64,000 nucleotides of DNA from Clostridiales bacterium DTU032 (GCA_001512745.1 LFSM01000075.1:80637-144636); one strand, 5' to 3'; shown: positions 4,602 to 64,000, counted from the first letter of the stretch. Numbers and translations are program-made. The notes: generated by a model not told the origin, from the letters alone.

Positions 4602-4602
4602 A

Positions 4603-5394: not shown

Positions 5395-5406
5395 TCTTTA
5401 TCCTCC

Positions 5407-6240: not shown

Positions 6241-6269
6241 TATAATTCTCCTTCTTTCGCTTGAACGGC

Positions 6270-7246: not shown

Positions 7247-7262
7247 TTATCAGTTCCTCCGT

Positions 7263-7892: not shown

Positions 7893-7949
7893 CTTCTATT
7901 ACCTCCTGGTTATTGGTTCACATCTGCGGTGAACATTGACCAATAATTG

Positions 7950-8261: not shown

Positions 8262-8526
8262 TTTTTCCTCCTATGGCTACGTTTTAATCACTCATTTTCT
8301 GTTAATCACTATCGACTCGGGTGTGTCTAACACTTTCATGTTAAAACCCAGTCGAAGTGCTTGGCGCTTACGCTGGGTGCTAAGCTGCCGCGTGATCATC
8401 GTCCGGATCAAGCCGGACTGCTCTAACGAAGTTACCTCTCCAATCCGCAGCGAACTGAAAAGCAATCTCCGTCTTCTTCGCTAACCTGTTTATACACAGA
8501 CGCAATCGTCCATGTAAAAAGGCACA
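8262..8526 (-). promoter_or_regulatory. Long (about 265 nt) structured 5' leader of the S10 operon
   Basis: This is the non-coding stretch between the predicted promoter and the rpsJ RBS. On the - strand it contains several hairpins, for example GUCCGG-CUUGAU-CCGGAC and ACCCAG...CUGGGU enclosing GCG-UAAG-CGC. Only a spurious 61-aa ORF lies within it. Confidence 0.45.
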
Positions 8527-8532
8527 AGGGGA

Positions 8533-8561
8533 AGTATAAAGTATCAAGGGACATATTGCAA
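8533..8561 (-). promoter_or_regulatory. Sigma-A-type promoter of the S10 operon
   Basis: On the - strand: TTGCAA (8561-8556), a 17-nt spacer, then TATACT (8538-8533). Match to consensus and spacing are both good. Confidence 0.6.
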
Positions 8562-8658
8562 GCATTTTTTCAAAAACTTGGAAAAAGCTTGGAAATAACA
8601 GGCTATACTCTCTTTTTCACCTTAATCATTGTCAATAATAGAGAGATAAGTCCATAAT

Positions 8659-10692
8659 ATGTGCGACATGACTTTACTAAGTATTAACAATATATCAAAA
8701 TCGTACGCAGCCGTAAAGGTACTTGAGGGTGTTGATCTCAACATTATGCCCGGAGATAAAATCGCCTTGATCGGTGACAACGGCGCCGGCAAGACCACCC
8801 TGCTGCGACTTATCGCCGGCAGTGAAACTCCGGACCCCGAATTCGGCAGCATAAAACTCGCGCGCGGTACAGTCGTGGGATATCTGGAACAGCAACTGGA
8901 TCACTTAAATGCAAACAGTGATTTTGCCCTGGAAGACCCGGAAATTGCTGCAGTTGAACAAGAGATTCTCGATTTGCAGACTGAACTGGAAAACTGTAGC
9001 GATAACAATCTTGATATACTTATGCAAAAGTATGCCGGGGCACAGGATCGTTATGAAGCCCTGGGCGGATTCAGCTTCCGCCAGCGTCTTCAGGCCACAT
9101 TAAACGCATTTTCTCTGGACGAGACCACGATCAGACGCCCTCTGGAATATCTTTCCGGAGGCGAACGCATGCGTGTAGCTCTGGCCCGGCTTTTGCTGCG
9201 ATCTCCTGACCTTCTCTTGCTGGACGAGCCTACCAACCATCTGGACCAGAAAGCAATAGACTGGCTGGAGGATTATCTGAATAAGATGACCTCAGCAGTT
9301 CTCTTTGTTTCGCATGACCGCGCTTTTATCAATAAGGTGGCCAACAAGACCGCTGAACTTAACACAGGCAAAATCAGAATGTATTCCGGCAATTACACAA
9401 AATATCTGGAACAAAAAGCTTTTGAAGAAAAGACTTTGGAACGGCGTATTTATCACATTGAAAAAAAACTGCAAAGGCAGGAAGAGATTACCCAGACTAT
9501 GCTGTCGCATCGAAAAATCGCTCAGTATCACAGCAGTGAAATAAAAGAGAGTCGCATAAGCGATGAGCTGGCTGCTTTACGCAATTTCAAAAGATCTTCA
9601 CATAAGCGCATGAGTTTCAAACCGGTACAAGAGCCGGCACAGACCAGTTCACGCCGTGAACAGATCGCAATGGAAGTTAAAGATCTCAGTGTCCGCTTTG
9701 AAGGAGAGTCTGATCCTATCTTCGAAAATTTAACCTTTAATCTGATCAAGGGTAAGCACCTTGTTCTTGTTGGCAGGAACGGTTGTGGCAAGACAACACT
9801 CTTAAAAACACTGATGGGAGAAATTCATCAAAACAAAGGCACTATTCGTAGTGCCGCTAATCTGACTTTCGCCTTCCTCGGTCAGGAGGCAAAATTTGAT
9901 GATTATGAAAAAACAGTACTGGAGCAATTGCTTATTCTCCAGCCTCAGCTAAATGATGCAAAAGCACGCAGTGAGCTGGCACGTGTTGGCTTCAGCGGGG
10001 ATACGGTCTTTCATAAGACAGGCAGTCTCTCCGGCGGAGAACGTTCTCGTTTATTTCTCTGCGCCCTCCTCCAGGATAAGCCGGACGTACTTTTCATGGA
10101 TGAGCCGACAAACCATCTGGATATATATTCACGTGAACTGCTGGAAGACGCACTGAACGAATTTACAGGCACCATTCTCGCAGTTTCGCATGACCGCTAC
10201 TTCATTGAGCATATTGCTGAAGAAGTCTGGGGCATGCTCGACGGCGGGATTGATGTTTTCTCAAATCTAGCTGAGTACAGAGAAGCAGAAAGAGTGGCCG
10301 GCAGAAAGAAAATAGAAAGCAAAAAGCCGGACCCCCTGGAAGCATTACCAGAAAAACAGCTGAAGACGGCGGTTTCCTCAGAAAAGCCGCTTGAAATGCC
10401 GCTTTGGGATGATAGAGAAATTCATCTCTACCCTCTTCTGGCCAATCTGAAACAGTATCCTGCCAACAAAAGTGAGCGCCGCCGTGTTGTTGCAGATATT
10501 AACAAGCTCCTCAGAGAAGTTGATAGTAATCTCTCCCGTCATCAGGAAGAGAAGATTTCTCTGGAAAAAAATTTCACCCGGGTTGAGTCGGGTGAAATCT
10601 ATCATGATTATGCAGACCTCCTGCAAACTATTGAAGCAGAGGAATTACTTTACCTGCAGCTGATGGAAATCGCAGAAGATATCAAGAGCTGA
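8659..10692 (+). CDS. ABC-F family ATPase (soluble, two ABC cassettes; probable ribosome-associated factor)
   Basis: 677 aa with Walker A motifs GDNGAGKTT and GRNGCGKTT and signatures LSGGERMR and LSGGERSR. A charged inter-domain linker is present and there are no TM segments. The start could also be ATG 8668. Confidence 0.88.
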   Translation: MCDMTLLSINNISKSYAAVKVLEGVDLNIMPGDKIALIGDNGAGKTTLLRLIAGSETPDPEFGSIKLARGTVVGYLEQQLDHLNANSDFALEDPEIAAVEQEILDLQTELENCSDNNLDILMQKYAGAQDRYEALGGFSFRQRLQATLNAFSLDETTIRRPLEYLSGGERMRVALARLLLRSPDLLLLDEPTNHLDQKAIDWLEDYLNKMTSAVLFVSHDRAFINKVANKTAELNTGKIRMYSGNYTKYLEQKAFEEKTLERRIYHIEKKLQRQEEITQTMLSHRKIAQYHSSEIKESRISDELAALRNFKRSSHKRMSFKPVQEPAQTSSRREQIAMEVKDLSVRFEGESDPIFENLTFNLIKGKHLVLVGRNGCGKTTLLKTLMGEIHQNKGTIRSAANLTFAFLGQEAKFDDYEKTVLEQLLILQPQLNDAKARSELARVGFSGDTVFHKTGSLSGGERSRLFLCALLQDKPDVLFMDEPTNHLDIYSRELLEDALNEFTGTILAVSHDRYFIEHIAEEVWGMLDGGIDVFSNLAEYREAERVAGRKKIESKKPDPLEALPEKQLKTAVSSEKPLEMPLWDDREIHLYPLLANLKQYPANKSERRRVVADINKLLREVDSNLSRHQEEKISLEKNFTRVESGEIYHDYADLLQTIEAEELLYLQLMEIAEDIKS

Positions 10693-10704
10693 CTTGCATG
10701 AGAA

Positions 10705-12015
10705 TCAAAGGCGCCCAAAGACAAACTTGCCTGCGGCTCCCTCCTTCAGTTCACCATCTTCAACAACCCATTTGCCACGGCTCATAGTTGAAACAACTCT
10801 GGCATTGACCGCCAGTCCCAGATAGGGACTGTCATCTGCTGCAGAATGAAGTTCATCTATTACTGCAGGACCTTCACGGTAGAGGACAATATCCGCATCG
10901 CTGCCGGGGGCGATAACACCTTTTTGCGGATAAAGGCCGAACATCTTCGCCGGATTCACAGTCAGCCGGTCAATAACCCCCTTGCCGTAAAAGGAATGCA
11001 TCAGCGGAAAAAGATACTCCAAACCACCCATACCCATAGGCATTACAGCCAGATTTCCTTCAGCCTTGCGCTTGGCATCCAAAGTAAAAGGACAATGGTC
11101 TGTAGCAAAAACACTAATCTCGCGCCAGTTTTTACGCAGCAATTCGCCTTGTTCTACTGAGCGTAAAGGCGGGGTAATCGTGTAACGGTAATAGTCTTCC
11201 CTTCCGTATACTGATTCATCAAAAACGAAATACTGAGGGGCACTCTCAAGAAACAAATTCTTATGCAGAATATCGCTATACTCATTTTTCAGCATTTCAA
11301 TCGTCTCACCACAATTAACATGTACTATATAACTGTTGCCACGGTGTTTTCTGGTCCACTCTGCAATCTTGCGCACTTCCTCAATCTCGCACTCAGGCGG
11401 GCGGTTCTGTGCCAAATTCCGTGCATCCTTGTTTTCATGGTTGATCAGAGCATCGTCTTCCGCATGAATGATAATACGCACATCAGCCTGAGCAGATCTT
11501 TCAATAAAAGCTTCAACTGTTTGCGGAGAGGAATAAATACCTGAAGGCCTGTATGTCGTGTAGAGCTTAATTGAAGGTGTCCCCTGAGCTACTGCCTGAT
11601 CTGCCATCTCACCTGCACTGTCTTTCAGCTCTTTTGCCGAAGCGTGCAAAGCGTAGTCGACCAAAACGTCCTTTGTGATTGCCATCTTTTCCCTGAAAAA
11701 ATCACGCATCTCTGCTACACTGGCAGCTTCGCCCAGGAAATCAATAAATGTGGTAACACCACCGTAAGCTGCAGCAATACTGCCACTGTGATAATCATCA
11801 CAGGACAGGTTTCCACCGGCACCATTGAGAGAAATATGGACATGTGCATCGATTATTCCGGGAGCCACGAACAAACCGCTGGCATCTGTACTTTGCTCTG
11901 CGTCAAATATTTCCGGAGAAAGCAAAGCGATCTTTCCGGCATTGATATAGACATTGGTGTCTATAAACTCTCCATCCTGATAAACCTGGCCATTTATTAT
12001 CCTGTGGTCATACAT
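10705..12015 (-). CDS. Cyclic amidohydrolase (dihydropyrimidinase/hydantoinase/dihydroorotase-like)
   Basis: 436 aa with the metal motif GIIDAHVHI and a later HAED and TDHCP pattern typical of the amidohydrolase superfamily. RBS is GGAGAGGAG. Confidence 0.8.
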   Translation of the reverse strand: MYDHRIINGQVYQDGEFIDTNVYINAGKIALLSPEIFDAEQSTDASGLFVAPGIIDAHVHISLNGAGGNLSCDDYHSGSIAAAYGGVTTFIDFLGEAASVAEMRDFFREKMAITKDVLVDYALHASAKELKDSAGEMADQAVAQGTPSIKLYTTYRPSGIYSSPQTVEAFIERSAQADVRIIIHAEDDALINHENKDARNLAQNRPPECEIEEVRKIAEWTRKHRGNSYIVHVNCGETIEMLKNEYSDILHKNLFLESAPQYFVFDESVYGREDYYRYTITPPLRSVEQGELLRKNWREISVFATDHCPFTLDAKRKAEGNLAVMPMGMGGLEYLFPLMHSFYGKGVIDRLTVNPAKMFGLYPQKGVIAPGSDADIVLYREGPAVIDELHSAADDSPYLGLAVNARVVSTMSRGKWVVEDGELKEGAAGKFVFGRL

Positions 12016-18261: not shown

Positions 18262-19944
18262 TTAAAACAGGCCGGAAATTTTACCGTTGGCATCCACGTC
18301 GATCTTCTCAGCAGAGGGTACGCGCGGCAGTCCGGGCATGGTCATAACTTCGCCGGTTAGGGCAACGATAAAACCTGCCCCGGCAGAAACCTTAAGGTTT
18401 GAAACCGTGATTTCAAAGTCGCGGGGGGCACCGATCAGTGACGGGTCATCGGAAAAAGAATACTGCGTCTTAGCCATACATACAGGCAGATCACCAAAGC
18501 CGTTGTCTGCCAATTCTTTGAGCTGTTTACGGGCCTTATTGCTGTAAACAACGCCATTGGCACGATACATACGTTTGGCAATAGCTTCGATTTTCTCTTC
18601 TATTGTCGTGTCGAGTTCGTAGGTGTAATGAGGAGACTTGTCGGAATCGCTGTCACAGAGACGAATGACTTCTTCAGCCAGTTCCAGACCACCTTCGCCG
18701 CCTTTGCCCCATACTTCAGACAGTGCAACATTTACATTAAGCTTGCGGCATTCTTCAGCTACCAGCTCAAGTTCTGCTTCTGTGTCATCAGGGAAACGGT
18801 TAATTGCTACTACGACAGGAAGTTTGAAGATTTCCTGCATATTTTCAACATGCTGCAGCAGGTTCGGCATACCCTTGGCCAGAGCATCGAGGTTTTCACC
18901 TTTCAGGTCGGTTTTGGCTACGCCACCATGCATTTTCAAAGCGCGAACGGTTGCAACGATTACAACTACATCCGGTCTAAGTCCGGCTGCCCGGCATTTA
19001 ATATCTATGAATTTTTCAGCGCCCAGATCTCCGCCGAATCCGGCTTCGGTAACCAGGTAATCAAAATTATTCAGAGCCAGTTTGCTTGCCAGGATGCTAT
19101 TACAGCCATGTGCAATATTTGCAAAGGGTCCGCCATGAACAAAAGCAGGAGTGCCTTCAAGTGTTTGAACCATATTGGGCTTAATCGCATCTTTCAGCAA
19201 AGCAGTCATAGCCCCTTCCGCCTTGAGATCAGCACAGGTAACAGGTTTGCCATCATAGCTATATGCAACAACAATTCTGGCCAGACGAGCCTTTAAGTCT
19301 TCCAGACTGGTCGCCAGACAGAATATGGCCATAACTTCTGATGCAACAGTGATATCAAAACCGTCTTCACGCGGAGTACCATTAGCTTTGCCGCCAAGGC
19401 CATCCACAACAAAACGCAGTTGACGGTCGTTCATGTCAACTACACGTTTCCAGGTAATCTGGCGGGGATCAATATTGAGACTGTTGCCCTGTTGAATATG
19501 ATTATCCAGCATGGCAGCCAACAAGTTATTGGCGGCTCCGATAGCATGAAAGTCTCCAGTAAAATGCAGGTTCAGGTCTTCCATCGGGACGACCTGGGCG
19601 TAGCCGCCACCTGCAGCTCCGCCTTTAATGCCAAAGACAGGGCCCATGGAAGGTTCACGCAAGGCCACAGTGCTTTTTTTGCCCAACTTTGTCAGAGCAT
19701 CAGCCAGACCTATTGTCGTTGTGGTCTTACCTTCCCCGGCAGGAGTAGGTGTAATTGCTGTCATCAGGATAAGTTTGCCCTGCTCTTTATCTTCGGATTG
19801 CGACAAAGCATCCAATGATACCTTCGCTTTGTACTTGCCGTAGTGTTCAAGATGATCTGGCGATATGGCTGCTGCTTCCGCAATCTCGTCGATTGATCTC
19901 ATTTCCGTCGCCTGGGCGATTTCAATGTCGGATTTGAATGTCAT
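18262..19944 (-). CDS. fhs: Formate-tetrahydrofolate ligase
   Basis: 560 aa with the P-loop [15 protein letters not shown] and colinear throughout with FTHFS. Confidence 0.96.
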
Positions 19945-51309: not shown

Positions 51310-52218
51310 ATGCTTACCTTTCGTGATCTGAAATCTTTTGTGGCAGTAATCGACACTGGCAGCTTTTCTCAGGCTGCTCAGGAACTCGCCTTGTCTCAAC
51401 CTACTGTAAGCGCACATATCAATTCCCTGGAAGATGAATTATCTGTACAGTTAGTGATGCGTTCCACTAAATCATCTACTGCCACTGAAGCGGGCAAGCT
51501 TCTCTATGCTTATGCCAAGCAGATTATTGCTCTCCTGGATGAGGCTGAAGCCGACCTGCGGTCCTATACTATTAAGAATGACAACACATTACGGATAGCT
51601 GTTTCCACTATACCTGCTCTTTATTTTCTTCCCGATTCATTACCTCAATTGCAGGAAACTTTCCCTGACCTTTCTTACAACATAATCGAAACGGACAGTA
51701 CCGGTGCAGCAGCCGCTGTTTACGAACAGCGTGCAGATCTGGCTATCGTGGGAACAAAGCTGGAATATGAAGGTTTACTTTTTACAAAGATTGCCGAAGA
51801 ATCTTTGCTCCTGATAGCTCCGCCACAGGAACCATATCTCAGCTCCGTAGCAAAAGTAAACCGCAATAATTTGGCAAACTGGCCCTTTATCAGACGTGAA
51901 GAAGGCTCAGGCACCTGGCTGGAATCCTACAATTTTTTTAACTCCTACCATATCGATCCTGAAGAGCTGAACACTGTTGCCAAAGTAAACGGAACCAGCA
52001 TGGCCCTGCATAGCGTAAAAGGCGGGCTTGGCTATACTTTGCTGTCGGAGCAGGCAGCAAGACCCTACATCGAAAGAGGCGAAGTTATTGATCTAAAAGC
52101 TGATTCTGCGGATCTGAAACGTCATTTCTGGCTGGTAACACCTGACAACAGACCCGGTACTCCGGCACTAAGATTCTTCACCGCTTTGATAAAAAAAAGA
52201 AATACAGCAGGTTTTTAG
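51310..52218 (+). CDS. LysR-family transcriptional regulator
   Basis: MLTFRDLKSFVAVIDTGSFSQAAQELALSQPTVSAHINSLE is a canonical LysR N-terminal HTH. The ORF-track TTG start at 51289 is an alternative. Confidence 0.88.
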   Translation: MLTFRDLKSFVAVIDTGSFSQAAQELALSQPTVSAHINSLEDELSVQLVMRSTKSSTATEAGKLLYAYAKQIIALLDEAEADLRSYTIKNDNTLRIAVSTIPALYFLPDSLPQLQETFPDLSYNIIETDSTGAAAAVYEQRADLAIVGTKLEYEGLLFTKIAEESLLLIAPPQEPYLSSVAKVNRNNLANWPFIRREEGSGTWLESYNFFNSYHIDPEELNTVAKVNGTSMALHSVKGGLGYTLLSEQAARPYIERGEVIDLKADSADLKRHFWLVTPDNRPGTPALRFFTALIKKRNTAGF

Positions 52219-52234: not shown

Positions 52235-53242
52235 ATGACTAAGGTACTGATGATTGCAAATCCCGTTGCCGGGAGACACACTACTTCTAAACCCTGGCTG
52301 GAACTGGAGCAGGAGCTGCTGAAGCTTGGAGTCGATGTAACCATCCGGGAAACTGCGCAGAGCTTCGACGCTACTTTAATCGCAGCGGCAGAGGGTTCTG
52401 ATTATGATTTTGTCTGCGCCTGCGGTGGCGATGGTACCCTGTCCGAAGTAGTTTCAGGCTTGATGCTTTTGGAAAAGCGGCCTTTTCTCGCCTTTCTGCC
52501 TATAGGTACCACCTGTGATATGGCTAAAAGTTTTAATCTCCCCTCTGAAGCTCACTTAGTAGCTGAAACAATGTTATACGGACCATCTTTCGCCATTGAT
52601 ATTGGTGCTATCAGCGGCAGTGAAGTTTTTCTTCGGCAGGATCTGCCCGACGGAGTTGCACCTGCTGAACCGGATCGACTGCCGCATCATTTCACTTACG
52701 TGACCAGTTTTGGAGCATTCAGCGAAACATCATATGCGACTTCGCATAACCTGAAAAAATCTCTGGGCTATTTTGCTTATGTTCTCGGTGGCATTAAATC
52801 TCTTTCTACCATCGAATCCCTGAGAGTCAGGATCACAAGAGATAACTGTGTTACTGAAGAATCCTTAATTTTCGGTGCAGTTGCCAATTCCAGTTCTATC
52901 GGCGGAGTACTTGAGATCGAAGGGGCCCGTTTTGATGATGGCAAATTCGAACTTATCATGGTTCGTACACCGGAAAACATAATGCAGATAGCGCCTATGC
53001 TTAAGAATCTGATTAGCAACAATAGTGATCCCCTGATAATCAGAGAACTTATCTCTGATTGTGAGTTTGAGTTCCTTGATGACATGAAATCCATGACGGT
53101 AGACGGCGAATACGGAGGCACCCGCAAGACCTGGCATTTTCTTAATAAGCCACGCTCCATCAATCTGAAAGTGCCCGAATTACCTCATCTTCCTACACAT
53201 GTTGATACTGTCAAGGATGCAAGACCAAAAGATAACGACTAA
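52235..53242 (+). CDS. Diacylglycerol/lipid kinase family protein (YegS/BmrU-like)
   Basis: 335 aa with the catalytic-domain motif ACGGDGTLSEVVSG. Confidence 0.85.
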   Translation: MTKVLMIANPVAGRHTTSKPWLELEQELLKLGVDVTIRETAQSFDATLIAAAEGSDYDFVCACGGDGTLSEVVSGLMLLEKRPFLAFLPIGTTCDMAKSFNLPSEAHLVAETMLYGPSFAIDIGAISGSEVFLRQDLPDGVAPAEPDRLPHHFTYVTSFGAFSETSYATSHNLKKSLGYFAYVLGGIKSLSTIESLRVRITRDNCVTEESLIFGAVANSSSIGGVLEIEGARFDDGKFELIMVRTPENIMQIAPMLKNLISNNSDPLIIRELISDCEFEFLDDMKSMTVDGEYGGTRKTWHFLNKPRSINLKVPELPHLPTHVDTVKDARPKDND

Positions 53243-53285
53243 GTTCGCTTAGTAGATTTTTTAGTAAAAAATGAAAGAACGACAA

Positions 53286-54323
53286 ATGGACGAAATTAAA
53301 CTGACATCAATGACTACTGCCGGTGGCTGAGGTTCAAAACTGGGACCGGAGGTCCTCTCTCAACTGCTGAATAATCTGCCCAAGGTGTATGATGACAAAC
53401 TTATCGTCGGTTATGACTCATCAGACGACGCCTCGGTCTATTTGGCGCGTGAAGATTTAGCCATCGTACAGACAGTAGATTTTTTCCCGCCAATTGTAGA
53501 TAATCCATATGAGTTCGGCCTGATTGCAGCGGCCAATTCAATCAGCGATATCTACGCGATGGGTGCCAGGCCTATCACCGCACTAAACCTGATCATGGTT
53601 CCCAGCTGCCTGCCTTTGGATGTTGTACGCGAAATTCTGCGTGGCGGCGCTGATAAGGCCTGGGAAGCAGGCCTGGTTATTGCCGGCGGACATTCAATTG
53701 AAGATGAAGAACCCAAATATGGCATGTCTGTTATGGGCTTAGCCCACCCTGATGATCTCTGGCACAATGATACGCCACGCATCGGAGATGTTTTGCTGCT
53801 CACTAAGCCATTGGGAACCGGCTGTCTGACCACTGCCATGAAAGTTGAACTTGTTAGCAAGGAGACCGAGGGTCTGGTAATTGATACCATGGCGCGCCTG
53901 AATAAGAACGGCTCCGAAGCTGCCCGCTTTGCCGATGTCTCTGCTGCCACTGATGTGACAGGCTTTGGTCTCTTGGGTCATGCTGCTGAAATGGCAGGCA
54001 GCGAAAAAGCTTGCACTATCTTGCTCGACAGCAAGAATTTACCTTTTCTTCCTGAAGCACTGGACCAGGCTGCAGGAGGAATTTTACCGGCCGGCGCCTA
54101 CAAGAACAGGTCTTTTGTTGGTGAAAAGGTGAAGTTTGATCCGTCGGTTCCACTGGAAATTACTGACCTGATGTTTGACCCCCAAACTTCAGGCGGCCTT
54201 CTCCTGGCTATGCCGGAAGCTGATGTTTCTGAATATCTGTCCGAGATGGAAAGGCGGGGCGAAACGGCATCTGTCATCGGTCAGGTGACGGAGTTCAGAA
54301 CTCACCCACTGGAAGTCAGATAG
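53286..54323 (+). CDS. selD: Selenide, water dikinase SelD, selenocysteine-containing (in-frame UGA at 53328-53330)
   Basis: Manual translation gives MDEIKLTSMTTAGG-U-GSKLGPEVLSQLLNNLPKVYDDKLIVGYDSSDDASVY, in frame with ORF 53385-54323. The UGA sits at the Sec/Cys position of the N-terminal glycine-rich loop of SelD. An alternative ATG lies at 53271. Confidence 0.88.
53342..53356 (+). other. Candidate bacterial SECIS hairpin of selD
   Basis: GGGAC-CGGAG-GUCCU (or a 6-bp stem with GGA loop) begins 11 nt after the UGA. The loop is G-rich. Confidence 0.5.
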
Positions 54324-54329
54324 AAGTAA

Positions 54330-55496
54330 CTAAGCTGTCTCGGCAATAGATTCCAGAATGTCTGCCACTTTATTAATATCCGACAGACTGTGATTGTAAG
54401 CAAAGGAAAAGCGCACCGTGCCCTCGGGATAGGAGGCAATTGTCTGGTGAGCCCGGGGAGCGCAATGCAGGCCAACACGCGTCAGCACTCCAGCTTCAGA
54501 CAGGCGCTGTGACAGTTCTGACGGATCCATTCCGTCCAGCTGCACAGAAACCACTGCAACCCTTCCCTCCCTGTTTTCAGGATCAGAAATACCAAAAATC
54601 CGGACCTTAGGCATTTCATTCAAACGCCGCAAAAATTGCGCGGTCAGATCGGCTTTATGTTGGTGAATATTATATAAACCTGTTTCTTCAATCCAGTCCA
54701 GTGCAACACTCAAACCCGCAATAGCAGGCAGAGCTAAAGTTCCGGCCTCCAGACGATCCGGCAAGGGTTCCGGCATGGTTTCCAGATGCGAAAAACTTCC
54801 TGTTCCTCCGCAGACCAAGGGGTGTATCAATTCTGCTGCCCTGTCAGACAATAACAAAGCACCCACACCTTGTGGCCCTAATAAACCTTTATGGCCGGTA
54901 ATAGCCAAAGCATCTATATTATCCTCACGCATTGATATAGGGAATGTTCCTGCAGCCTGAGCGCTATCTACGGCAAAGAGAATACCCTTTTCCCTGCAAA
55001 TCTTTCCGATATCTTGTATGGGCAGGCATGTCCCGGCCACGTTTGAAGCCGCAGTAACTATAACTAATTTTGTCTGCGGCCTGATCAGTTCAACAATTTT
55101 CTCAGGATCAAGCTGACCCTCTTTATTAGCCATAGCCAGAGAAAATTCAATCCTGCCTTCGTCTCGCAGCTGAGTCAGTGGTCTGATTACTGCATTGTGT
55201 TCCATTGAACTCGTGATAACGTGATCCCCTTTTTCCAATATTCCATATAAGAGGACATTTAGAGCAAGAGTCACTCCTGAGCTGAAAGTAACATTCTTCA
55301 GTCTGGGAGCATCAAACATATTGCTCAGCTGTTCCCGTGTGCGAAAAAGCATTGCTTCTGTGTCGAAGGCACCGGCATAAATCCCCCGCGATGCATTAAA
55401 AGCTCCCGCATCAATGAAACGCATCATAGCTTGCCCCACACCCGGTGCTTTTGGCGAAGCTGTGCTAGCCTGATCGGTATTGATTAAAAACTCCAC
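54330..55496 (-). CDS. Class-V aminotransferase: cysteine desulfurase / selenocysteine lyase family
   Basis: 388 aa with the PLP-Lys region ALAITGHKGLLGPQGVG and active-site Cys loop RVGLHCAPRAH. It is convergent with selD (3' ends 6 nt apart) and divergently transcribed from yedE. Confidence 0.85.
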   Translation of the reverse strand: MEFLINTDQASTASPKAPGVGQAMMRFIDAGAFNASRGIYAGAFDTEAMLFRTREQLSNMFDAPRLKNVTFSSGVTLALNVLLYGILEKGDHVITSSMEHNAVIRPLTQLRDEGRIEFSLAMANKEGQLDPEKIVELIRPQTKLVIVTAASNVAGTCLPIQDIGKICREKGILFAVDSAQAAGTFPISMREDNIDALAITGHKGLLGPQGVGALLLSDRAAELIHPLVCGGTGSFSHLETMPEPLPDRLEAGTLALPAIAGLSVALDWIEETGLYNIHQHKADLTAQFLRRLNEMPKVRIFGISDPENREGRVAVVSVQLDGMDPSELSQRLSEAGVLTRVGLHCAPRAHQTIASYPEGTVRFSFAYNHSLSDINKVADILESIAETA

Positions 55497-55650
55497 TGAG
55501 AATCTCCTTGAGTGTCTTTATCGGTTTATCCTATAAAGTCCTGTTTGAATTAGCTGATTTTATAATATGCTTGCTTAACCTGCAAGGCAAATTGGATTTT
55601 CAAATACCGGATCCGTTTGCTGGTTAACAAAATTATAATAGGAGTACGAT

Positions 55651-56712
55651 ATGAAGAAGAAAAACTTGATTCTGGTTGTAGTAACCGGTTTGGCTCTCGG
55701 TGCTGCCGGAGTTGGCCTGATGCTACTGGGAAACCCTGGCAATATGGGTTTCTGCATTGCTTGTTTTATCCGTGACACTGCCGGTGCGCTTAAATTACAT
55801 ACAGCAGCTGTTGTGCAATATGCCCGTCCGGAAATTATCGGCCTGATACTAGGAGCATTTCTGATTTCTCTTGTGACAAAAGAATTCAAGCCCAGAGGCG
55901 GATCTTCCCCTCTGACCCGTTTTATGCTTGGTTTTTTTGTCATGATTTCAGCTCTGGTTTTCCTGGGCTGCCCCTTGCGTATGGTTCTGCGGATGGCTGC
56001 AGGTGACCTTAATGCCTGGGTTGGCTTGATCGGATTTATTGTTGGCGTATTTGTCGGAGTGCAATTCCTTAAAAAGGGTTACTCACTTGGCCGTACCTAC
56101 AAGAAAAATGTTTTGGAAGGCCTTACCATGCCTGCAATCCAGGTGGTTTTACTGATTGCCCTGATAGCAGGTGGTGTTTTACTGGCAGTCTCCGCCGAGG
56201 GACCCGGATCTATGCAGGCCCCGATTTGGATCGCATTTTTGCTCGCACTGGTAATCGGTGTCATTGCTCAGCGTTCACGTATCTGCCAGATGGGCGGATT
56301 CCGCGACTTGATCATGCTGAAGGACCCCCATCTTTTCTGGGGCGGTCTGGCAATTTTTGTTGCAGCCCTGATCTTTAACCTTGCCGCCGGAAAATTCACC
56401 CTCAGCTTTGCCGATCAGCCGATTGCTCATACCGAGTGGCTCTGGAACTTGCTGCCTATGGTAGGTGTCGGATTCGGTTCCGTCCTGCTGGGTGGCTGCC
56501 CCATGCGTCAGCTGGTCCTTAGCGGAACGGGCAATATTGATTCCACCATTACCTTGTTCGGTTTTCTGGTCGGCGCAGCCTTCTCACATAACTTCTCGCT
56601 GGCTTCAAGTGCTGCAGGTTCAACCCCAGGCGGAAGAATTGCCACCATTGTGTCATTGCTTGTTATGCTGATAATCGGTTTTGCCTACAGCAGAAAAAGC
56701 GCAAACGCATAA
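55651..56712 (+). CDS. yedE: YedE/YeeE-family membrane protein (putative selenium/sulfur-compound transporter)
   Basis: 353 aa, polytopic, with the conserved Cys-containing re-entrant motifs GFCIACFIRD, GCPLRM, RICQMGGFRD and GGCPMRQL. Confidence 0.85.
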   Translation: MKKKNLILVVVTGLALGAAGVGLMLLGNPGNMGFCIACFIRDTAGALKLHTAAVVQYARPEIIGLILGAFLISLVTKEFKPRGGSSPLTRFMLGFFVMISALVFLGCPLRMVLRMAAGDLNAWVGLIGFIVGVFVGVQFLKKGYSLGRTYKKNVLEGLTMPAIQVVLLIALIAGGVLLAVSAEGPGSMQAPIWIAFLLALVIGVIAQRSRICQMGGFRDLIMLKDPHLFWGGLAIFVAALIFNLAAGKFTLSFADQPIAHTEWLWNLLPMVGVGFGSVLLGGCPMRQLVLSGTGNIDSTITLFGFLVGAAFSHNFSLASSAAGSTPGGRIATIVSLLVMLIIGFAYSRKSANA

Positions 56713-56760
56713 GAACATAAAATATAAGGTCTTTGGTAGGCACAAGGAAAGGATTTATAT

Positions 56761-56967
56761 ATGAAAACAGTTGATGCACGTGGACTATCTTGTCCTGAAC
56801 CTGTGTTTTTAGCAAAGAAAGCTATGGATGCGGGCGAATATCCCTTTGCAGTGCTCGTAGATGATACGACGCCACTGGAAAATATTAAACGTTTTGCAAA
56901 TCAGAATAAACAGACTATCAAAGTTTACGAAGCTGATGGTGAATACACTATCACTTTCGAGAAATAA
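56761..56967 (+). CDS. yedF: TusA/SirA-like sulfur(selenium)transferase YedF
   Basis: 68 aa starting MKTVDARGLSCPEPV, which carries the CPxP active-site motif. Confidence 0.85.
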   Translation: MKTVDARGLSCPEPVFLAKKAMDAGEYPFAVLVDDTTPLENIKRFANQNKQTIKVYEADGEYTITFEK

Positions 56968-57030
56968 GATAGTCCTGACACACGGCTGGGCAGGTTGACA
57001 AGTTCTGTCATCCTGCCCACAATTAATCTT

Positions 57031-57270
57031 ATGAAATATATAGCAACTTTTTACACACATTTTGGAGCTTTCAGCTTTAACAGGCGCTTAGAAAAGCTTG
57101 GCGATGAATCCGTCAAGTTAATTGCTGCTCCGAGAAAAATTAGCGTTTCCTGCGGGACAGCAGTCAGTTTTTCTCTGGAATTTAATCCCGAGACCATGGC
57201 AGACGAAGATACCGAGGCGATTTATCTTGTTGAAGATGATATTTTCACTTTAATTTATCACAACGAGTAG
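57031..57270 (+). CDS. DUF3343-like small protein (putative Se/S carrier)
   Basis: 79 aa from ATG 57031, starting MKYIATFYTHFGAFSFNRRLEKLG...PRKISVSCGTAV. The size and the single conserved Cys context resemble DUF3343. The assignment is from memory of the family and has not been searched. Confidence 0.6.
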   Translation: MKYIATFYTHFGAFSFNRRLEKLGDESVKLIAAPRKISVSCGTAVSFSLEFNPETMADEDTEAIYLVEDDIFTLIYHNE

Positions 57271-57406
57271 TCTAGCCAGCATTCTTCTCAAGCCCGGCTT
57301 CTTTCGGTTTTTTCTTATTATTCGCGATTTCAGCGGAATATCAGTAAGTATTTGATACAATGTAAACAAGAAATTTTCAGCCATGCTTAACTACAGAGGA
57401 GTTTAT

Positions 57407-58801
57407 ATGACGATAATTAATACCCCACGTGACTTACCTCAGCTGGACGAGTTCATTGAATTAGAAGAATTACGGGACATAAAACTCCGTTACGGACGCA
57501 CTCCCCTGGTCGAGGCTTGCCGCGTCTGCATTGACGACCTCCGTCAAAGACTCTTGAAGGGGTCTGCTCCTGAGACCCTTGACTCTTTAGTGTCAGCAGT
57601 CAGGGCCCATGTTGTAAAAACACAAAGCCCAAAACTTAAGCGGGTTTTAAATGCCACCGGTACTATTCTGCACACGAATCTGGGACGAGCCCCTCTGGCC
57701 AAAGCTGCAGTTGATGCCGTCTGTGAAATTGCCTCCTCATACAGCAATCTCGAATATAATCTTGATCTGGGTAAACGTGGCTACCGCACCAGCAACATCG
57801 AAGAAAGGATGCAGGAGATCTTCGGCGTGGAAGCCGCTGTGGTAGTTAATAATAACGCGGCAGCCGTTATGCTTACCTTGGCTGCTCTGGCACGTGGTAA
57901 AGAAGTTATCGTATCCCGCGGTGAGCTGGTAGAAATAGGCGGTTCTTTCCGCGTCCCGGAAATAATGAGTGAAAGCGGGGCCAGGCTTGTAGAAGTCGGC
58001 ACAACCAATAAAACCCATCTTCATGATTATCGCAAGGCAATTAATGAAGACAGCGGCGCCCTGCTCAAAATACACCGCAGCAATTTTCTAATGCAAGGCT
58101 TTACCTCAGAAGTATCTATCGGCGATTTGCGTCCTTTGGCTGATGAATCAGGACTGCCGCTCATTTACGATTTAGGCAGCGGGTCTTTCTCTGACAGCCT
58201 GGCCGGCGTATTGCCGGAAGAGCCCACAATCAAGGAAGCTATTGACGCCGGGGCTGACCTTATTCTTTTCTCCGGTGATAAACTTTTCGGCGGTCCTCAG
58301 GCAGGCTTCATTCTGGGCCGTGCAGATCTGATCGCCCAAATAAAGCACCACCCCCTGCTGCGCCCCCTGCGCATCGATAAGATGACCCTTGCTGCTTTGG
58401 AAGCCACCCTCCTGCTCTACTCTGACCCTGACAAGGCCAGAGAAAACATTCCCCTTCTGCAGATGACGCTGATGGATTCTGATCAGTTGAAAGAGCGCAG
58501 TCTGCATCTGCTGGAGACCCTTCAGGCCCACGGAATCAAGGCTGTGCTTGAAGATAGTGATGCTGTCCTGGGAGGGGGATCTTCACCGGGTGTCAAACTT
58601 GACTCCTGCAATATCGTCGTGACACCGGCCATCGGCCAGTCAGCACAAGCACTTGATGTCAGCCTTCATCAGGCGGACCCCCCGGTTATTTCCAGAATAG
58701 TACGTGATCGCCTGCACTTTGATCTGCGCACTATAAAAGCCGAAGAAGATAGTGAATTGAGCGCTATTCTCATTTCAGTATTGGAAAAGGATCAGCTATG
58801 A
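57407..58801 (+). CDS. selA: L-seryl-tRNA(Sec) selenium transferase
   Basis: RBS AGAGGAG precedes ATG 57407. SelA motifs are present (NATGTILHTNLGRAP; PLP-Lys region FSGDKLFGGPQAG). Its stop overlaps the selB start (ATGA). Confidence 0.93.
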   Translation: MTIINTPRDLPQLDEFIELEELRDIKLRYGRTPLVEACRVCIDDLRQRLLKGSAPETLDSLVSAVRAHVVKTQSPKLKRVLNATGTILHTNLGRAPLAKAAVDAVCEIASSYSNLEYNLDLGKRGYRTSNIEERMQEIFGVEAAVVVNNNAAAVMLTLAALARGKEVIVSRGELVEIGGSFRVPEIMSESGARLVEVGTTNKTHLHDYRKAINEDSGALLKIHRSNFLMQGFTSEVSIGDLRPLADESGLPLIYDLGSGSFSDSLAGVLPEEPTIKEAIDAGADLILFSGDKLFGGPQAGFILGRADLIAQIKHHPLLRPLRIDKMTLAALEATLLLYSDPDKARENIPLLQMTLMDSDQLKERSLHLLETLQAHGIKAVLEDSDAVLGGGSSPGVKLDSCNIVVTPAIGQSAQALDVSLHQADPPVISRIVRDRLHFDLRTIKAEEDSELSAILISVLEKDQL

Positions 58802-60696
58802 GCAGTAACGTAATCATTGGTACAGCCGGTCACGTAGATCACGGCAAAAGTTCATTAATTAATGCTCTGACACATATCGAAACTGACCGGCTGAGCGAAG
58901 AAAAAGCACGCGGCATAACCATCGAGCTGGGTTTTGCCTATCTAGATCTGCCTGACGGCAGACGTGCCGGTATCATCGATGTCCCCGGACACGAACGCTT
59001 TGTCAGCAATATGCTGGCAGGCGCCGGCGGCATCGATATTGCCCTCCTGGTTGTAGCAGCAGATGAAGGTGTCATGCCACAAACCTTGGAACATCTGGGA
59101 ATTTTACAGCTTTTAGGTATTAAGCAGGGCGTGATTGCTCTGACGAAGATAGACCTGGTTGATGAAGAATGGCTGGAGCTGGCAGAAGAAGATTTACGTG
59201 AGCATATTGCCGGCAGCTTTCTAGAAGATGCTCCGTTTTTCCGTGTCTCTTCCAATACCGGCAGAGGGATAAAAGAGCTGCGGGAGGCCCTAATTGAAGC
59301 AGTCAATGATGCCGATGACAAGAAGCTTTCCGTAGCTTTCCGGCTGCCGATAGACCGCGTATTCACTCTGAGCGGCATAGGCACCGTAGTCACAGGAACT
59401 CTAATCGAAGGAAAACTTTCCACCGGCGATGATGTTGAACTTTACCCTCAGGAAGAAACAGTGCGTATTCGTTCTGTCCAGGTCCACGACGAAGCTGTCG
59501 ACGCTGCGGAAGCCGGTCAAAGAGTTGCGCTTAACCTCTCCGGCACAAAAAAAGATCAAGTAGAGCGCGGAGATATCCTGGCTGAGACCGGGTCGCTCTA
59601 CCCTACTTATATGCTGGACGTCGACCTGAGATCTTTAAGGCACAGCCGCTTCCAGATCGAAAATGGCATGCGTGTGCACTTATATCACGCTTCCAGAGAA
59701 TTACTGGCCCGGGTGATCTTGCTTGACCGGGATTTATTGGAAAAGGGCGACAGCGCTCCAGCTCAGTTGCGCCTGGAAGAGCAAACATATATTAAACAGG
59801 GTGATCATTTTGTCGTCCGCTTTTATTCTCCTGTAGAAACTATAGGCGGCGGTATCGTCCTTGATCCGATTGCAAACAAAAGGAAGCGCTATGAAGACCT
59901 GGATGACTTCGAAATCTTGCTAAGCAGCGATGCTGCGGCGAGACTGGATCTGGCACTGAAAAGCAGTGGCCTGCGCTTTAAAGCTCTGGACGAAATTTAC
60001 TACCGTGCCGGACTTAATTCAGCTGATGGCAGGAAGTATCTGCAGGAATTAATTGAAAAGGGACGTGCCTTACAGTTGAACGATCAAACAGCACTGCATA
60101 TTTCCGCTATGGAAGTTCTGGCAGCTAAATGTGATGAAATCCTGCAAAAATTCCACCAGGACTTGCCGCTGGAACAGGGCATGAAGCGCGAATCACTTCG
60201 CACCCGTCTCCTGGCAAGGATTCCCATCCAGCTTTCCGACCGTGTTATCGATGAATTGGTAAAACTGGGATATATCGAAGACAGAGCCGGCGATATTGCC
60301 TTAAGAAGTCATTCCGCCAATTTGTCCCCTCACGACCAGGAGCTGATCGATGAACTCAGCGCACGTTTTGAAGCTGAAGCCTTCTCTCCCAGCGCAACAG
60401 ATGAACTGATAGCTGAATACAGCAAAAAGGATAAGCTTGATCAAATTCTCTCCCGGATGGTAAATGACGGCATTCTTATTCGCCTGACAGATCAGATCCT
60501 GATGCACCACGAAACCGTAGAAAAAGCTCTTGAACAGGTGAAAAAAGATATCGGCGAGCGCGGATCTGTCACACTCGCCGACTTTCGCGATGAAATCGGA
60601 ACTAGCCGAAAGTTTGCCATTGCAATTCTGGAATACTTTGACCGCATAAAACTTACTAAGCTTAGCGGCGATGCCAGGGTTTTACTTGGCAACTAG
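58798..60696 (+). CDS. selB: Selenocysteine-specific elongation factor SelB
   Basis: 632 aa with the GTPase motifs [18 protein letters not shown] and DVPGHERF, plus a long winged-helix C-terminal half. Confidence 0.94.
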
Positions 60697-61584
60697 GTTT
60701 TTTACAGTATATTTTTTAACCAGCCATACAGGATTGTAAGAGAGCTTCGACTTGCGCAAGCCCAGATCTCCAGCATCATCTTCCCTGTTGACGTAGGTTA
60801 CGTTTTCATTGGTGAATTCTCGCACAAAACTGGTCATTAAATGCTGGTAAGCGCCACGATAGTTAGTGTTTGCCTTCTCAACATGTACGTAAAGTGTATC
60901 ACCATCATATTCTCCTAAAGAGAATCCGGCTATCACCTCATCTTCAGCGTACAGAGCGGCACCAAAAGCACGATAAAGTTCCATGTTGTCCATGACTTCG
61001 TGGATTTTGTCTGCCTCTTCCAGAGTAGTATCATCCGCTTCGGTATCATTCTCGACAAAGCGATCCAAAAAGACATGTAAATCCGGAGTTATCTCTTCAT
61101 CAATGATACGAAAACTATTATGGGGAAAAAGCCTCTTGAAACGACTGATATTGTTTCTGGTAGAGCGGTGTGCTTTTCCCTTGAGCTCCAAAAGTTCTTT
61201 TGCTTCATAGAGATAATCAAAGTAATCTCTCTCTTCACAAATGTCCATCCCGGCATAATGGCTTTGCAAGACAGGCAAATCCGCTTCGCCTGCGATGGCA
61301 TACTGCAATTTCCCCTTGTGCTGGCAGGAAGCACAGAATTCGTCAATCAGCCGCATGCCCTCTATCTGATCACCGCCCAGCGGTACTGTAAATGCACATT
61401 CATCATCAAATATGCGCATACGAAAAATAAGATTTCCCGCAGCAAAGGCATACTCATACTTAAAGGCATCCCTCCAGATGTAGGTACCGCCAATGGTCCA
61501 ATCGCAGAGTCTCTGAGGATGCAAGGCCAGATATGGGGCTATTACCGGAATAGTATCGAGTGTTAGTTTTTTAAATTCAAGCAT
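60682..61584 (-). CDS. DUF2156-like protein (GNAT-fold, resembles the C-terminal domain of lysyl-phosphatidylglycerol synthases)
   Basis: 300 aa containing WTIGGTYIWRDAF...KAHRSTRNNISRF...YVNREDDAGDLGLRKSKLSY. The family assignment is from memory. It converges on selB with a 15-nt overlap. Confidence 0.6.
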   Translation of the reverse strand: MLEFKKLTLDTIPVIAPYLALHPQRLCDWTIGGTYIWRDAFKYEYAFAAGNLIFRMRIFDDECAFTVPLGGDQIEGMRLIDEFCASCQHKGKLQYAIAGEADLPVLQSHYAGMDICEERDYFDYLYEAKELLELKGKAHRSTRNNISRFKRLFPHNSFRIIDEEITPDLHVFLDRFVENDTEADDTTLEEADKIHEVMDNMELYRAFGAALYAEDEVIAGFSLGEYDGDTLYVHVEKANTNYRGAYQHLMTSFVREFTNENVTYVNREDDAGDLGLRKSKLSYNPVWLVKKYTVKNLVAK

Positions 61585-61647: not shown

Positions 61648-62805
61648 CTAATCTTCGCTTACATACCCCGCCTTCCGCAGGATCTCAAGCGCTTTTTCAG
61701 AATTAGCTTCCGAAACCATTACAACCGGTCCGGTACAACCCATTCCGCTTTTGGCGTAAATTTTTTCACGCCAGAGGACATTGACAGCATCATCCAGATC
61801 CAGAACTTCAATGCCACTGATCTCAAAGGTAACAACTTCAGCCGGCGGAGCTGCTACTTCTTCATCAGCCTCCTGTTTGGCTGATTTGGACCGGCGTTCT
61901 TCAAGGATTTCGTTCAGGCCGGCTTTTCTGGCCAGCTCCATTTCCCTCTTATAAACGTTGACCAGATCACCTTTAGCCATAGCTGCAGCATAACGGATTG
62001 CTCCGGCGATCAAGCTGGAACCGGATGCGCGAGAAATAATCAGCACGATTCCATTCATAGCTTCGCCAACACCAGGACCATAGCCTTCACCCACAGTCTC
62101 ATAGCTTCCGCCTGAAGAATGTGCAGACAACATTTTTACCAGAACATTGCCGGTAAGTGAATCTGTTACCAGCACGTCTTGCGAACCGAGCAAAACATCG
62201 TTGCCCCGCATGACGGCACCGCCATCAGCACGTTTGGAACGTGCAGCTGCTATAGGATAGCCATTCTCACTGAGTTTTTTCAGTACCATCTCGGTCTGAC
62301 GGGCACCATCCAGATTAAGGATACCTACTCCCGGATTTTCAATGCCATAGGCCTTGGCGGTCGCAATACCTGCGATTGCGCCTTTTACCATCGCTTCAAC
62401 GCGGTCAGTAGCAGCAGTTCCTGTAGTTGTTGCCAGAAAGTAGCTCTGGCCTGTAGCAGGAGCTACAACCCGGCCGATTGTTGCCACTCCGATCGGGAAA
62501 GGATAGTGCATGGCAACTGCAGCATCCGCTTTGCCTTCATTAAGTAATTTTTCCATTTCCTTGAGGCAGTCATCAGCACAGTCTGCATAGACAGTTTCAA
62601 TACCTTCAGCCTCGAGAGTTCCGATATAGATGACTTCGATACCATCACGGGCGGCTTCTAAACAGGCTGCCAGAACATTGTTCTCACCATGTTCTGAGCC
62701 AACACCGGGCACTGCGATTCTCACACTTTTAGCAAAAGAACCGCTTTCAATACCCTGTGCTATTTCCTCAAAGACACTGGCAATTTCTCTTTTAATATCT
62801 GTCAT
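61648..62805 (-). CDS. grdD: Glycine/sarcosine/betaine reductase complex component C, alpha subunit
   Basis: MTDIKREIASVFEEIAQG start at ATG 62805, 5 nt after the grdC stop. It has a PlsX-like fold pattern and GMGCTGP near the C-terminus. The ORF-track start at 62859 overlaps grdC. Confidence 0.88.
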   Translation of the reverse strand: MTDIKREIASVFEEIAQGIESGSFAKSVRIAVPGVGSEHGENNVLAACLEAARDGIEVIYIGTLEAEGIETVYADCADDCLKEMEKLLNEGKADAAVAMHYPFPIGVATIGRVVAPATGQSYFLATTTGTAATDRVEAMVKGAIAGIATAKAYGIENPGVGILNLDGARQTEMVLKKLSENGYPIAAARSKRADGGAVMRGNDVLLGSQDVLVTDSLTGNVLVKMLSAHSSGGSYETVGEGYGPGVGEAMNGIVLIISRASGSSLIAGAIRYAAAMAKGDLVNVYKREMELARKAGLNEILEERRSKSAKQEADEEVAAPPAEVVTFEISGIEVLDLDDAVNVLWREKIYAKSGMGCTGPVVMVSEANSEKALEILRKAGYVSED

Positions 62806-62809: not shown

Positions 62810-64000
62810 TTACCTGCTTTCCAGCAGACTGGAAGCGAAGTCACGCAAAGATTCAGCAATCAGGCTGCGGATCTCGTCACGTGATACAGCTGCTTCCTCT
62901 TCAGCACCTTGGTTAGCCTGAACGACGAAAGAAATACCGTCGAAGAGATTGGTTAAACGTCCCAGAAAGAGTGAGCCTTTACCAATGATCATGACCTTGT
63001 TCATCTTGCCGCTAAGAATTCTCTGCCTGGCATGACCGAGATAGGGTACACCTGAAGGAATGTGACCCTGTGTCGGTGCAAATCCGACAACACCATGCTT
63101 AGCAACAAAGTCATTCATCTCTTTGCGATCCAGATCTCCACGCTTAACTGCCAGTGCACCGATCATCTTCATGTTTGACTGCGGTACATCGCCGGCACCT
63201 GCCGGCTTGGTGATGTCTGGATTCTGCATTTCCGGTGAAAACTTGTCGATATCACTGACTTTCATTCCTGCTCTATCAAGTGGATCAACAACCAGAGAAC
63301 CGATTACGTTCTGGGGCGAGCTGCCGGTACCAACTGTGTGGGTGCCCTGAATATCGAGATTGATTTCAGGATTTACACCATCATTAGCTGAGAGTATAGT
63401 AGCGAAGCCACCTAAAACATCTTCCAGGATCGGGAGATTTTTTTTGACGTGGTCTTTGCCGTTCATTCCCAGTTTAGCTGTACTGCCTCCGGCAGTAACG
63501 GCAACACATTTAAATGTGCCGGCTTTAACCAGTGAAGCTGCCATGGTCAGTGCATGAGAAGGTGCGGCACAGAAACCACGTGTGTCAGAACCGGTAGCAT
63601 TAACCAGTCCGGCAATTTCCGCAGCTGCTTTGGCGAAGTTGCCGCCACCGCGCTGGTTCATATCACCACAGGCCTCTTCAGAACAGTCGATTACATATTC
63701 TACTTCACCCGGATCCATGCCGGCATCTTTAAGTGCATAGAGTAAAGACAAGACACTGGAAGCTTTGGAGACAATGTTCTCCAGCATGACATGAGCTGAG
63801 AGGTTTTCATCGATGGCATGGGCATTTTTGACACAGCCAACCAGCTTACCCTTCGAGTATAGTGGCTCGGCTTTTTCACTGATTAATTTTTCAATCTGCC
63901 CGATTTCGATGCCTTCTTCAATACGGTCAAGGATCAATTCCGTAATAATTTCATCTTTGGCCAGTTCCGGCTTCATCTTTGCCACAAAGCCTTTTTCAAG
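62810..64000 (-). CDS. grdC: Glycine/sarcosine/betaine reductase complex component C, beta subunit (N-terminus outside the window)
   Basis: Thiolase/KAS-like sequence (DCSEEACGDMNQRGGGNFAKA, GFCAAPSHAL). The reading frame stays open upstream of the listed Met to the window edge (…LEKGFVAKMKPEL). Confidence 0.88.
   Translation of the reverse strand, partial: LEKGFVAKMKPELAKDEIITELILDRIEEGIEIGQIEKLISEKAEPLYSKGKLVGCVKNAHAIDENLSAHVMLENIVSKASSVLSLLYALKDAGMDPGEVEYVIDCSEEACGDMNQRGGGNFAKAAAEIAGLVNATGSDTRGFCAAPSHALTMAASLVKAGTFKCVAVTAGGSTAKLGMNGKDHVKKNLPILEDVLGGFATILSANDGVNPEINLDIQGTHTVGTGSSPQNVIGSLVVDPLDRAGMKVSDIDKFSPEMQNPDITKPAGAGDVPQSNMKMIGALAVKRGDLDRKEMNDFVAKHGVVGFAPTQGHIPSGVPYLGHARQRILSGKMNKVMIIGKGSLFLGRLTNLFDGISFVVQANQGAEEEAAVSRDEIRSLIAESLRDFASSLLESR

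Follow-up and report, generated by a model that had tools for sequence, protein, structure and literature searches.

An open question in the field is by what means bacteria take up selenium in a specific manner and direct it to the selenophosphate synthetase SelD; a dedicated selenium transporter is yet to be demonstrated for any organism (PMC11097638). The question is raised by a locus of Clostridiales bacterium DTU032, contained in a stretch of 64,000 nucleotides (GCA_001512745.1 LFSM01000075.1:80637-144636; hereafter the window, from the first letter of which all positions are counted). Here the genes for selenocysteine (Sec) insertion, selD, selA and selB, lie together with yedE, which encodes a putative selenium transporter, and with several accessory genes. 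An initial annotation of the window had named selD, a NifS-like lyase, yedE, yedF, a DUF3343 gene, selA and selB, and all seven were confirmed in their places by profile hidden Markov models (HMMs) with scores above the curated cut-offs. Together with the gene of a selenium metabolism-associated LysR-family regulator (lysR_Se) they form a cluster of 9.4 kb, from lysR_Se to selB, that adjoins a glycine reductase operon. It is likely that the locus is a Sec-utilisation gene cluster of a known type, carried by an uncultured Clostridia bacterium of an anaerobic digester and neighboured by the consumer of its product, the glycine reductase operon. The arrangement, as well as a model in which the accessory genes provide import, relay and recycling of selenium, has already been published (Lin et al., 2015; PMC5322559). 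The present work is a good annotation of this already described system and not a discovery, as the locus contains no component or arrangement beyond the comparative genomics of 2015 and the same module occurs in hundreds of genomes. It does show the leading candidate system for selenium acquisition in compact form and next to a clear selenoprotein consumer, and it could be a template for heterologous reconstitution.

The selD gene (53271..54323, + strand) gave a full-length match to TIGR00476 (364.5 bits, cut-off 125). When it was translated through the stop, an in-frame TGA (53328-53330) was found in the motif TTAGG-U-GSKLGP at the position of the catalytic Cys, within the N-terminal glycine-rich loop G-x-G-(U/C)-G-x-K (here AGG-U-GSK). 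The same column was inspected in 38 related selD genes, 17 of which had TGA and 21 a Cys codon. A hairpin resembling a Sec insertion sequence (SECIS), GGGACC-GGA-GGUCCU (53342..53356, +), starts 11 nt after the UGA. It was present in all 17 of the 17 UGA-type selD genes and included one compensatory pair (AU in 9, GC in 6 and GU in 2), with a median of -7.0 kcal/mol in the UGA-type versus -4.2 kcal/mol in the Cys-type genes (Mann-Whitney p = 0.004). Its conservation stems partly from the protein, because the segment is coding sequence, and no SECIS family of Rfam matched at selD. The pairing of Sec with Cys among the relatives and the conserved hairpin just past the in-frame UGA support Sec decoding at selD, in agreement with its annotation as a Sec-containing enzyme.

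The other two genes of the insertion machinery were identified as selA (57407..58801, +), which encodes an L-seryl-tRNA(Sec) selenium transferase of 464 aa (TIGR00474, 552 bits), and selB (58798..60696, +), which encodes the Sec-specific elongation factor with the SelB winged-helix domains (TIGR00475, 404 bits). Both identities agreed with the initial annotation. The selA start, formerly placed at 57383, had to be corrected to 57407, a position backed by an AGAGGAG ribosome-binding site, by the alignment with the nearest relative (locus L001) and by public gene calls. The ATGA overlap between the selA stop and the selB start, from which translational coupling had been proposed, was found at 58798-58801 in the junction sequence. 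From the equivalog-level membership of the three proteins their canonical functions follow: SelD makes selenophosphate, SelA turns Ser-tRNA(Sec) into Sec-tRNA(Sec) and SelB brings the latter to UGA/SECIS sites.

A consumer of this product is found next to the cluster. The grdC-grdD end of the glycine reductase operon had been located about 1 kb past selB, and grdD indeed ends 952 bp after selB. The grdD gene (61648..62805, - strand) encodes component C alpha of glycine/sarcosine/betaine reductase (NF040747, 523 bits, cut-off 350), and grdC (62810..64000, -), for component C beta, is cut by the end of the window (NF040746, 602 bits, profile positions 119-477). On the same contig past the window (3225-11158 of locus L086) the operon reads grdX-grdE-grdB(UGA)-trxB-trxA-grdA(UGA)-grdC-grdD and is followed by a DUF2156 gene. 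GrdA reads CFV-U-TAAGAMD and GrdB reads TST-U-GTCTRCG; directly after the grdB UGA the SECIS_4 family of Rfam was matched with 56 bits. The Sec machinery has three UGA-decoded genes (selD, grdB and grdA) no more than about 19 kb away. Genes for EF-Tu and Lon lie upstream of the operon on L086. The gap between selB and grdD is occupied by the DUF2156 gene (60682..61584, -; LPG_synthase_C domain, PF09924, 129 bits), which is also present in L001, overlaps the 3' end of selB by 15 bp and lies 63 bp past grdD, a placement that would suit the final gene of the grd operon.

A gene for tRNA-Sec (selC) was not detected by ARAGORN or Rfam in the 64-kb window, the only tRNA genes being those for tRNA-Leu and tRNA-Val, and tRNA genes were also absent from the approximately 7 kb by which the contig extends past the window. 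As a positive control, ARAGORN detected tRNA-Sec in 7 related loci, so that the negative result is meaningful and the earlier observation that the window lacks selC holds. Because selD, grdA and grdB carry UGA, the presence of selC elsewhere in the genome is implied. Among the 12 loci with complete selAB, selC was adjacent in 6, and it was also adjacent in L061, where selB is cut. The loci in which tRNA-Sec lies directly beside selA/selB or selD are the more distant ones (L024, L040, L041, L045, L061, L069 and L073). In the closest relatives L001, L003, L005 and L008 selC was not adjacent, which indicates that a remote selC is a feature of the lineage of the window.

The accessory genes were then considered for their possible role in the supply of selenium. 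The product of yedE (55651..56712, +) is a polytopic membrane protein that belongs to the family of YedE putative selenium transporters (TIGR04112, 485 bits, cut-off 200). About 9-10 hydrophobic segments were seen in a hydropathy scan, and five Cys residues in four motifs (C35-x-x-C38, GC107P, IC212Q and GGC283P) were invariant in 81 sequences. This bears out the initial description of a polytopic protein with four Cys-containing motifs. The superfamily of YedE also contains transporters of sulfur compounds, and it could be that yedE, its two small partner genes and the lyase gene serve sulfur, by the uptake of thiosulfate or sulfane sulfur and by the desulfuration of cysteine for cofactor or tRNA thiolation. 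Their location beside the sel genes would then be due to shared chalcogen chemistry or regulation and not to a dedicated selenium route. We regard this as unlikely. The grouping of YedE with the thiosulfate-transporting YeeE proteins, an outcome considered in the initial annotation, was tested with the thiosulfate TsuA models, on which YedE reached 51 bits (NF052577, cut-off 400) and 40 bits (NF041049, cut-off 645), against 485 bits on the selenium-linked TIGR04112. This places the protein in the selenium-linked family and apart from TsuA/YeeE.

The YeeE/YeeD pair (TsuA/TsuB of Spirochaeta thermophila and Escherichia coli; PDB 6LEO and 8K1R) is nevertheless instructive, as it resembles the window genes in several respects. 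In both systems a membrane protein of the PF04143 superfamily is encoded beside a TusA-family protein of ~70-80 aa with a CPxP Cys, and the Cys motifs RIC...FRD and GGC align between YeeE and YedE. The two systems differ not only in the scores on the TsuA models but also in the number of invariant Cys residues (five in YedE, three in YeeE), in the presence of DUF3343 as a third partner of YedE and in genomic context, which consists of sel genes here rather than cys genes. Near the cluster no cys or sulfate-assimilation genes were seen, which speaks against the use of the accessory genes for sulfur. The closest solved structure to YedE is that of S. thermophila YeeE (6LEO, 36 bits), in a weak alignment that spans the Cys motifs. 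The alignment covers residues 55-135 and 192-297 of YedE and is a cross-match between internal repeats, in that the C-terminal half of YedE matched the N-terminal half of YeeE best, and conversely; the Cys motif of the first helix is kept in both repeats of YedE, unlike in YeeE. YeeE does not mediate uptake without the CPxP Cys of YeeD, to which the substrate becomes covalently bound; in the crystallised YeeE-YeeD fusion this Cys adjoins C22, the first-helix Cys of the channel (PMC11073785).

Downstream of yedE a TusA/SirA-like protein of 68 aa is encoded as the partner of YedE (56761..56967, +). It passed the gathering score of PF01206 (59.3 bits versus 28.6) and has, as CPEP, the CPxP motif that marks the start of helix 1 in this family; the Cys of the motif (C12) was invariant in every intact related copy. 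The name yedF that it had been given could be retained only in part: the protein is TusA-like and has the CPEP motif, but it is not the two-domain YedF, since it reached 49 bits on TIGR03527 (cut-off 110) and matched only positions 1-64 of the 194 of this profile. YedF as defined by TIGR03527 is a protein of about 200 aa with an N-terminal SirA/TusA domain and a C-terminal DsrE-like domain with a CGxC motif (PMC5322559). The counterpart of the window protein in Lin et al. (2015) is the short 'SirA-like' gene adjacent to YedE. A PDB search matched the window protein to TusA/YhhP (E 7e-4), and no match to E. coli YedF was obtained even at E <= 10. The same search did not recover YeeD either, which is a further difference from the YeeE/YeeD system.

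The next gene encodes a DUF3343 (Se_S_carrier) protein of 79 aa (57031..57270, +). The HMM check on which this assignment had been made dependent was passed (PF11823, 36.2 bits versus the gathering score of 25). The protein has the invariant motif PR-x-(I/L)S-x-SCG, and the single conserved Cys of this motif (Cys41) was present in every copy listed. A homolog search for DUF3343 gave at least 7 close relatives. Replacement of this Cys, or of that of the TusA-like protein, by Sec in the relatives was considered and rejected, since the TusA-like protein had Cys in all intact copies and DUF3343 in all copies listed. Short tblastn coverages of the carrier proteins were C-terminal. That DUF3343 is a diverged TusA paralog was likewise rejected (hhalign probability 0.4%). 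No relative of DUF3343 was found by sequence in the PDB. An AlphaFold2 model with a predicted local distance difference test score (pLDDT) of 92, obtained in 1/5 models, had a small alpha/beta fold in which the Cys loop lies between strands 2 and 3. The best Foldseek hit of this fold was PII/GlnK-like and was not significant (E about 0.08, template modelling score about 0.5).

On the opposite side of yedE and divergent from it lies the gene of a class-V pyridoxal phosphate (PLP) enzyme (54330..55496, -), which is convergent with selD at a gap of 6 bp. It was assigned to the EF2568/SclA family of the cysteine desulfurase/selenocysteine lyase type (PF00266, 264 bits; TIGR01977, 395 bits versus 377), in line with the earlier description of a convergent class-V PLP enzyme of this type. 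H100, the PLP lysine K203 and C345 were invariant in 50/50 sequences. The lyase did pass the broader TIGR01977, but it did not reach the SclA model NF040779 (354 bits versus a cut-off of 525). The NCBIfam name of TIGR01977, 'cysteine desulfurase family protein', and the missed SclA model are among the points that favour a function in sulfur metabolism. The window lyase and SclA (EF2568) of Enterococcus faecalis belong to the same TIGR01977 family, their genes each adjoin selD, and the window lyase keeps H100, the PLP lysine and the catalytic Cys. Apart from the missed SclA-specific cut-off, the difference is in the context, which is Sec decoding here, whereas in E. faecalis it is the selenium-dependent molybdenum hydroxylase trait without selA and selB. 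SclA, the founding member of the EF2568 family, favours Sec over Cys, and H100 is a residue that was studied in this enzyme (bioRxiv 10.1101/2020.02.07.939272).

The association of these genes was examined across species by mapping the window proteins with tblastn onto 80 species-level loci that were recovered with YedE, mostly from Clostridia and some from Spirochaetota; the loci with enough flank served as the denominator for each neighbour. In 77/77 loci yedE was immediately followed by the TusA-like gene, and in 64/74 DUF3343 came next. The lyase gene was found divergently upstream of yedE in 44/68 loci, and within 10 kb of yedE selD was present in 20/36 and selAB in 7/36 fully flanked loci. 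In the locus of the cultured relative Mogibacterium pumilum ATCC 700696 (L019) the yedE-tusA-DUF3343 triad was seen by itself, and neither the lyase gene nor selD or selAB was detected up to 10 kb away. The same neighbours recur in the 80 species-level loci and the clustering is far beyond chance. Together with the HMM memberships, the gene order kept across 80 species supports the view, taken in the initial annotation, that the selenium genes are functionally linked as a module. The pairing of the lyase with yedE and the proximity of selD argue against a role of the accessory genes in sulfur metabolism, and so does the near-exclusive occurrence of YedE in genomes with SelD that was found by Lin et al. 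(2015) (P = 2.2e-16; PMC5322559). The same study described DUF3343 as a neighbour of YedF and of the lyase, and the LysR_Se subfamily as a neighbour of selA/B/D, and proposed a model with a transporter, a chaperone, a recycling enzyme and a regulator (PMC5322559), which reviews of 2022 and 2026 repeat. The neighbourhoods of Slackia heliotrinireducens described there (Shel_25110-25130 and Shel_25300-25450) contain the same set as the window, i.e. YedE, a short SirA/TusA-like protein, DUF3343, a protein of the Sec-lyase family, SelD, SelA/SelB and LysR_Se, and the model of import, chaperone and recycling is identical. The window differs in that its cluster is packed in 9.4 kb directly beside a glycine reductase operon, that the two-domain YedF (TIGR03527) is absent and that a lipid kinase gene lies between lysR_Se and selD.

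The near-invariant order of yedE, the TusA-like gene and DUF3343, and the lack of detectable kinship between DUF3343 and TusA, would fit a machine of three parts. In this rather speculative extension, which we hold to be possible but doubtful, the DUF3343 protein linked to YedE is the obligate third part, a carrier beside the YedE channel and the TusA-like acceptor that passes selenium to the lyase or SelD, and it represents a selenium-specific subgroup that Lin et al. (2015) were unable to delineate.

Since yedE, the TusA-like gene, DUF3343, selA and selB follow each other, they had been described as one same-strand run. The common strand was confirmed, but the run is probably divided into two transcription units. 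The gap between DUF3343 and selA (136 bp) is mostly diverged from that of the nearest relative L001 and contains a 30-nt indel; what is conserved is the ribosome-binding site and the block ATTTG(A/G)TACAATGTAAA. We interpret the block as an extended -10 promoter (TGaTACAAT, 57353..57361, +, 45 nt upstream of the selA start), so that selAB probably has a promoter of its own, with possible read-through. A separate selAB promoter is likely because of this conserved extended -10 element and because yedE-tusA-DUF3343 only sometimes precedes selAB across species. No convincing terminator was seen 3' of DUF3343, and generic scans for promoters and terminators were uninformative, as their counts did not depart from chance. 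Probably yedE-tusA-DUF3343 is a module separate from selAB, and there are three transcription units, lysR-kinase-selD, the lyase gene and yedE-tusA-DUF3343, with selAB transcribed, at least in part, from a promoter of its own.

The first of these units begins with two genes immediately upstream of selD that are absent from the initial annotation. The lysR_Se gene (51310..52218, +) has the same orientation as selD, which it precedes by 1 kb, and its product passed the cut-off of NF040786 (270.4 bits versus 250) and has the Pfam domains HTH_1 and LysR_substrate. Mechanical reading of the frame starts at TTG 51289, whereas the gene callers on public contigs start at ATG 51310, which gives a protein of 302 aa. 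It is followed by the gene of a lipid (diacylglycerol) kinase of the YegS/BmrU type (52235..53242, +; TIGR00147, 139 bits versus 119; PF00781). The three genes lysR_Se, lipid kinase and selD share one strand and are separated by 16 bp and 28 bp. The lipid kinase gene is probably a passenger, as the loci with a homolog of it upstream of selD were confined to the close relatives L002, L003 and L005.

A candidate binding site for a LysR-type regulator (T-N11-A) was found in the divergent intergenic region between the lyase gene and yedE, where a dyad CTTTAT-N11-ATAAAG is located at 55516..55538. Compared with L001 its arms are conserved and its spacer is diverged; a TATAAT box in the same intergenic region is also conserved with this nearest relative. 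The dyad is the sole site with zero mismatches in the window and in L086, and no second copy was found upstream of selD, selA or grdX. Such dyads were not enriched over shuffles (8/49 related intergenic regions versus 6.0 +/- 2.2), and for this reason the putative operator is kept only as a lead.

When these components are combined, a route for selenium from the environment to SelD can be proposed. YedE would be a YeeE-like channel with one Cys-bearing motif pair per internal repeat that takes up a selenium species. By analogy with YeeE/YeeD, the selenium may be passed from YedE to the CPxP Cys of the 68-aa TusA-like partner, docked on the cytoplasmic face, and DUF3343 could act through Cys41 as another small carrier that continues the relay. 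The EF2568/SclA-type lyase would mobilise selenium from free Sec, for recycling or delivery, towards SelD, and expression would be controlled by LysR_Se. We infer this route of import, relay and recycling, which matches the published hypothesis.

Several points weigh against it. All characterised members of the YeeE family move sulfur species (YeeE/YeeD, SoxT and zero-valent sulfur transport), DUF3343 was found also in organisms that lack SelD by Lin et al. (2015), to whom a definition of a selenium-specific subfamily was not possible (PMC5322559), and deletion of yedE in Methanococcus maripaludis did not result in a clear selenium phenotype (PMC11097638). These three points also favour a sulfur function of the accessory genes. 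In addition, the Sec specificity of the lyase is only putative because the SclA cut-off was missed. The structure model of DUF3343 was confident in only one of the five runs, and the promoter and operator assignments rest on one close relative.

Another possibility, which appears more improbable still than a role in sulfur metabolism, is that the accessory genes protect against selenium or buffer it. YedE would then export reactive selenium or limit its entry, the TusA-like protein and DUF3343 would sequester selenide or perselenide, and the lyase would destroy free Sec and so prevent its misincorporation. The sequence does not tell in which direction transport would run, selenide and free Sec are toxic (bioRxiv 10.1101/2020.02.07.939272), and redox or detoxification roles have been raised for YedF-type proteins (Lin et al., 2015; PMC5322559). 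However, yedE mRNA of M. maripaludis was increased by 5.3 log2 units upon selenium starvation, and not by excess (PMC11097638), and it is with the selenium consumers SelD, SelA and SelB that the accessory genes are tightly linked in the loci. A further argument against detoxification comes from Campylobacter jejuni. Its FdhT is presumably a YedE homolog. The fdhTU genes are needed for the biogenesis of the selenium-dependent formate dehydrogenase and FdhT and FdhU for its activity (as cited in PMC5322559), and FdhU was equated with YedF by Lin et al. (2015; PMC5322559). Import and relay of selenium by the window genes would resemble the C. jejuni system in that accessory genes assist the biogenesis of a selenium-dependent selenoenzyme. 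The consumer is formate dehydrogenase there and glycine reductase here, and DUF3343 is not reported as a component of the C. jejuni system.

The cluster had also been termed a selenium island. It is a real gene cluster, but it is not compositionally distinct, its GC content being 0.47-0.49 versus 0.43-0.47 in the rest of the window. Because a marked GC anomaly is absent and the flanks are housekeeping, a mobile island was rejected. Proteins identical to those of the window are already public in metagenome contigs from anaerobic digesters and in the metagenome-assembled genome GCA_012727845.1, and within the genome collection the closest species representative, an uncultured 'Mageeibacillus', has a YedE identity of 78%. 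The housekeeping genes elsewhere in the window include those for pyruvate kinase, HprK, MurB, RapZ, WhiA, FtsEX and formate-tetrahydrofolate ligase. The last of these (18262-19944, -; 937 bits) fits a lifestyle of glycine and one-carbon fermentation.

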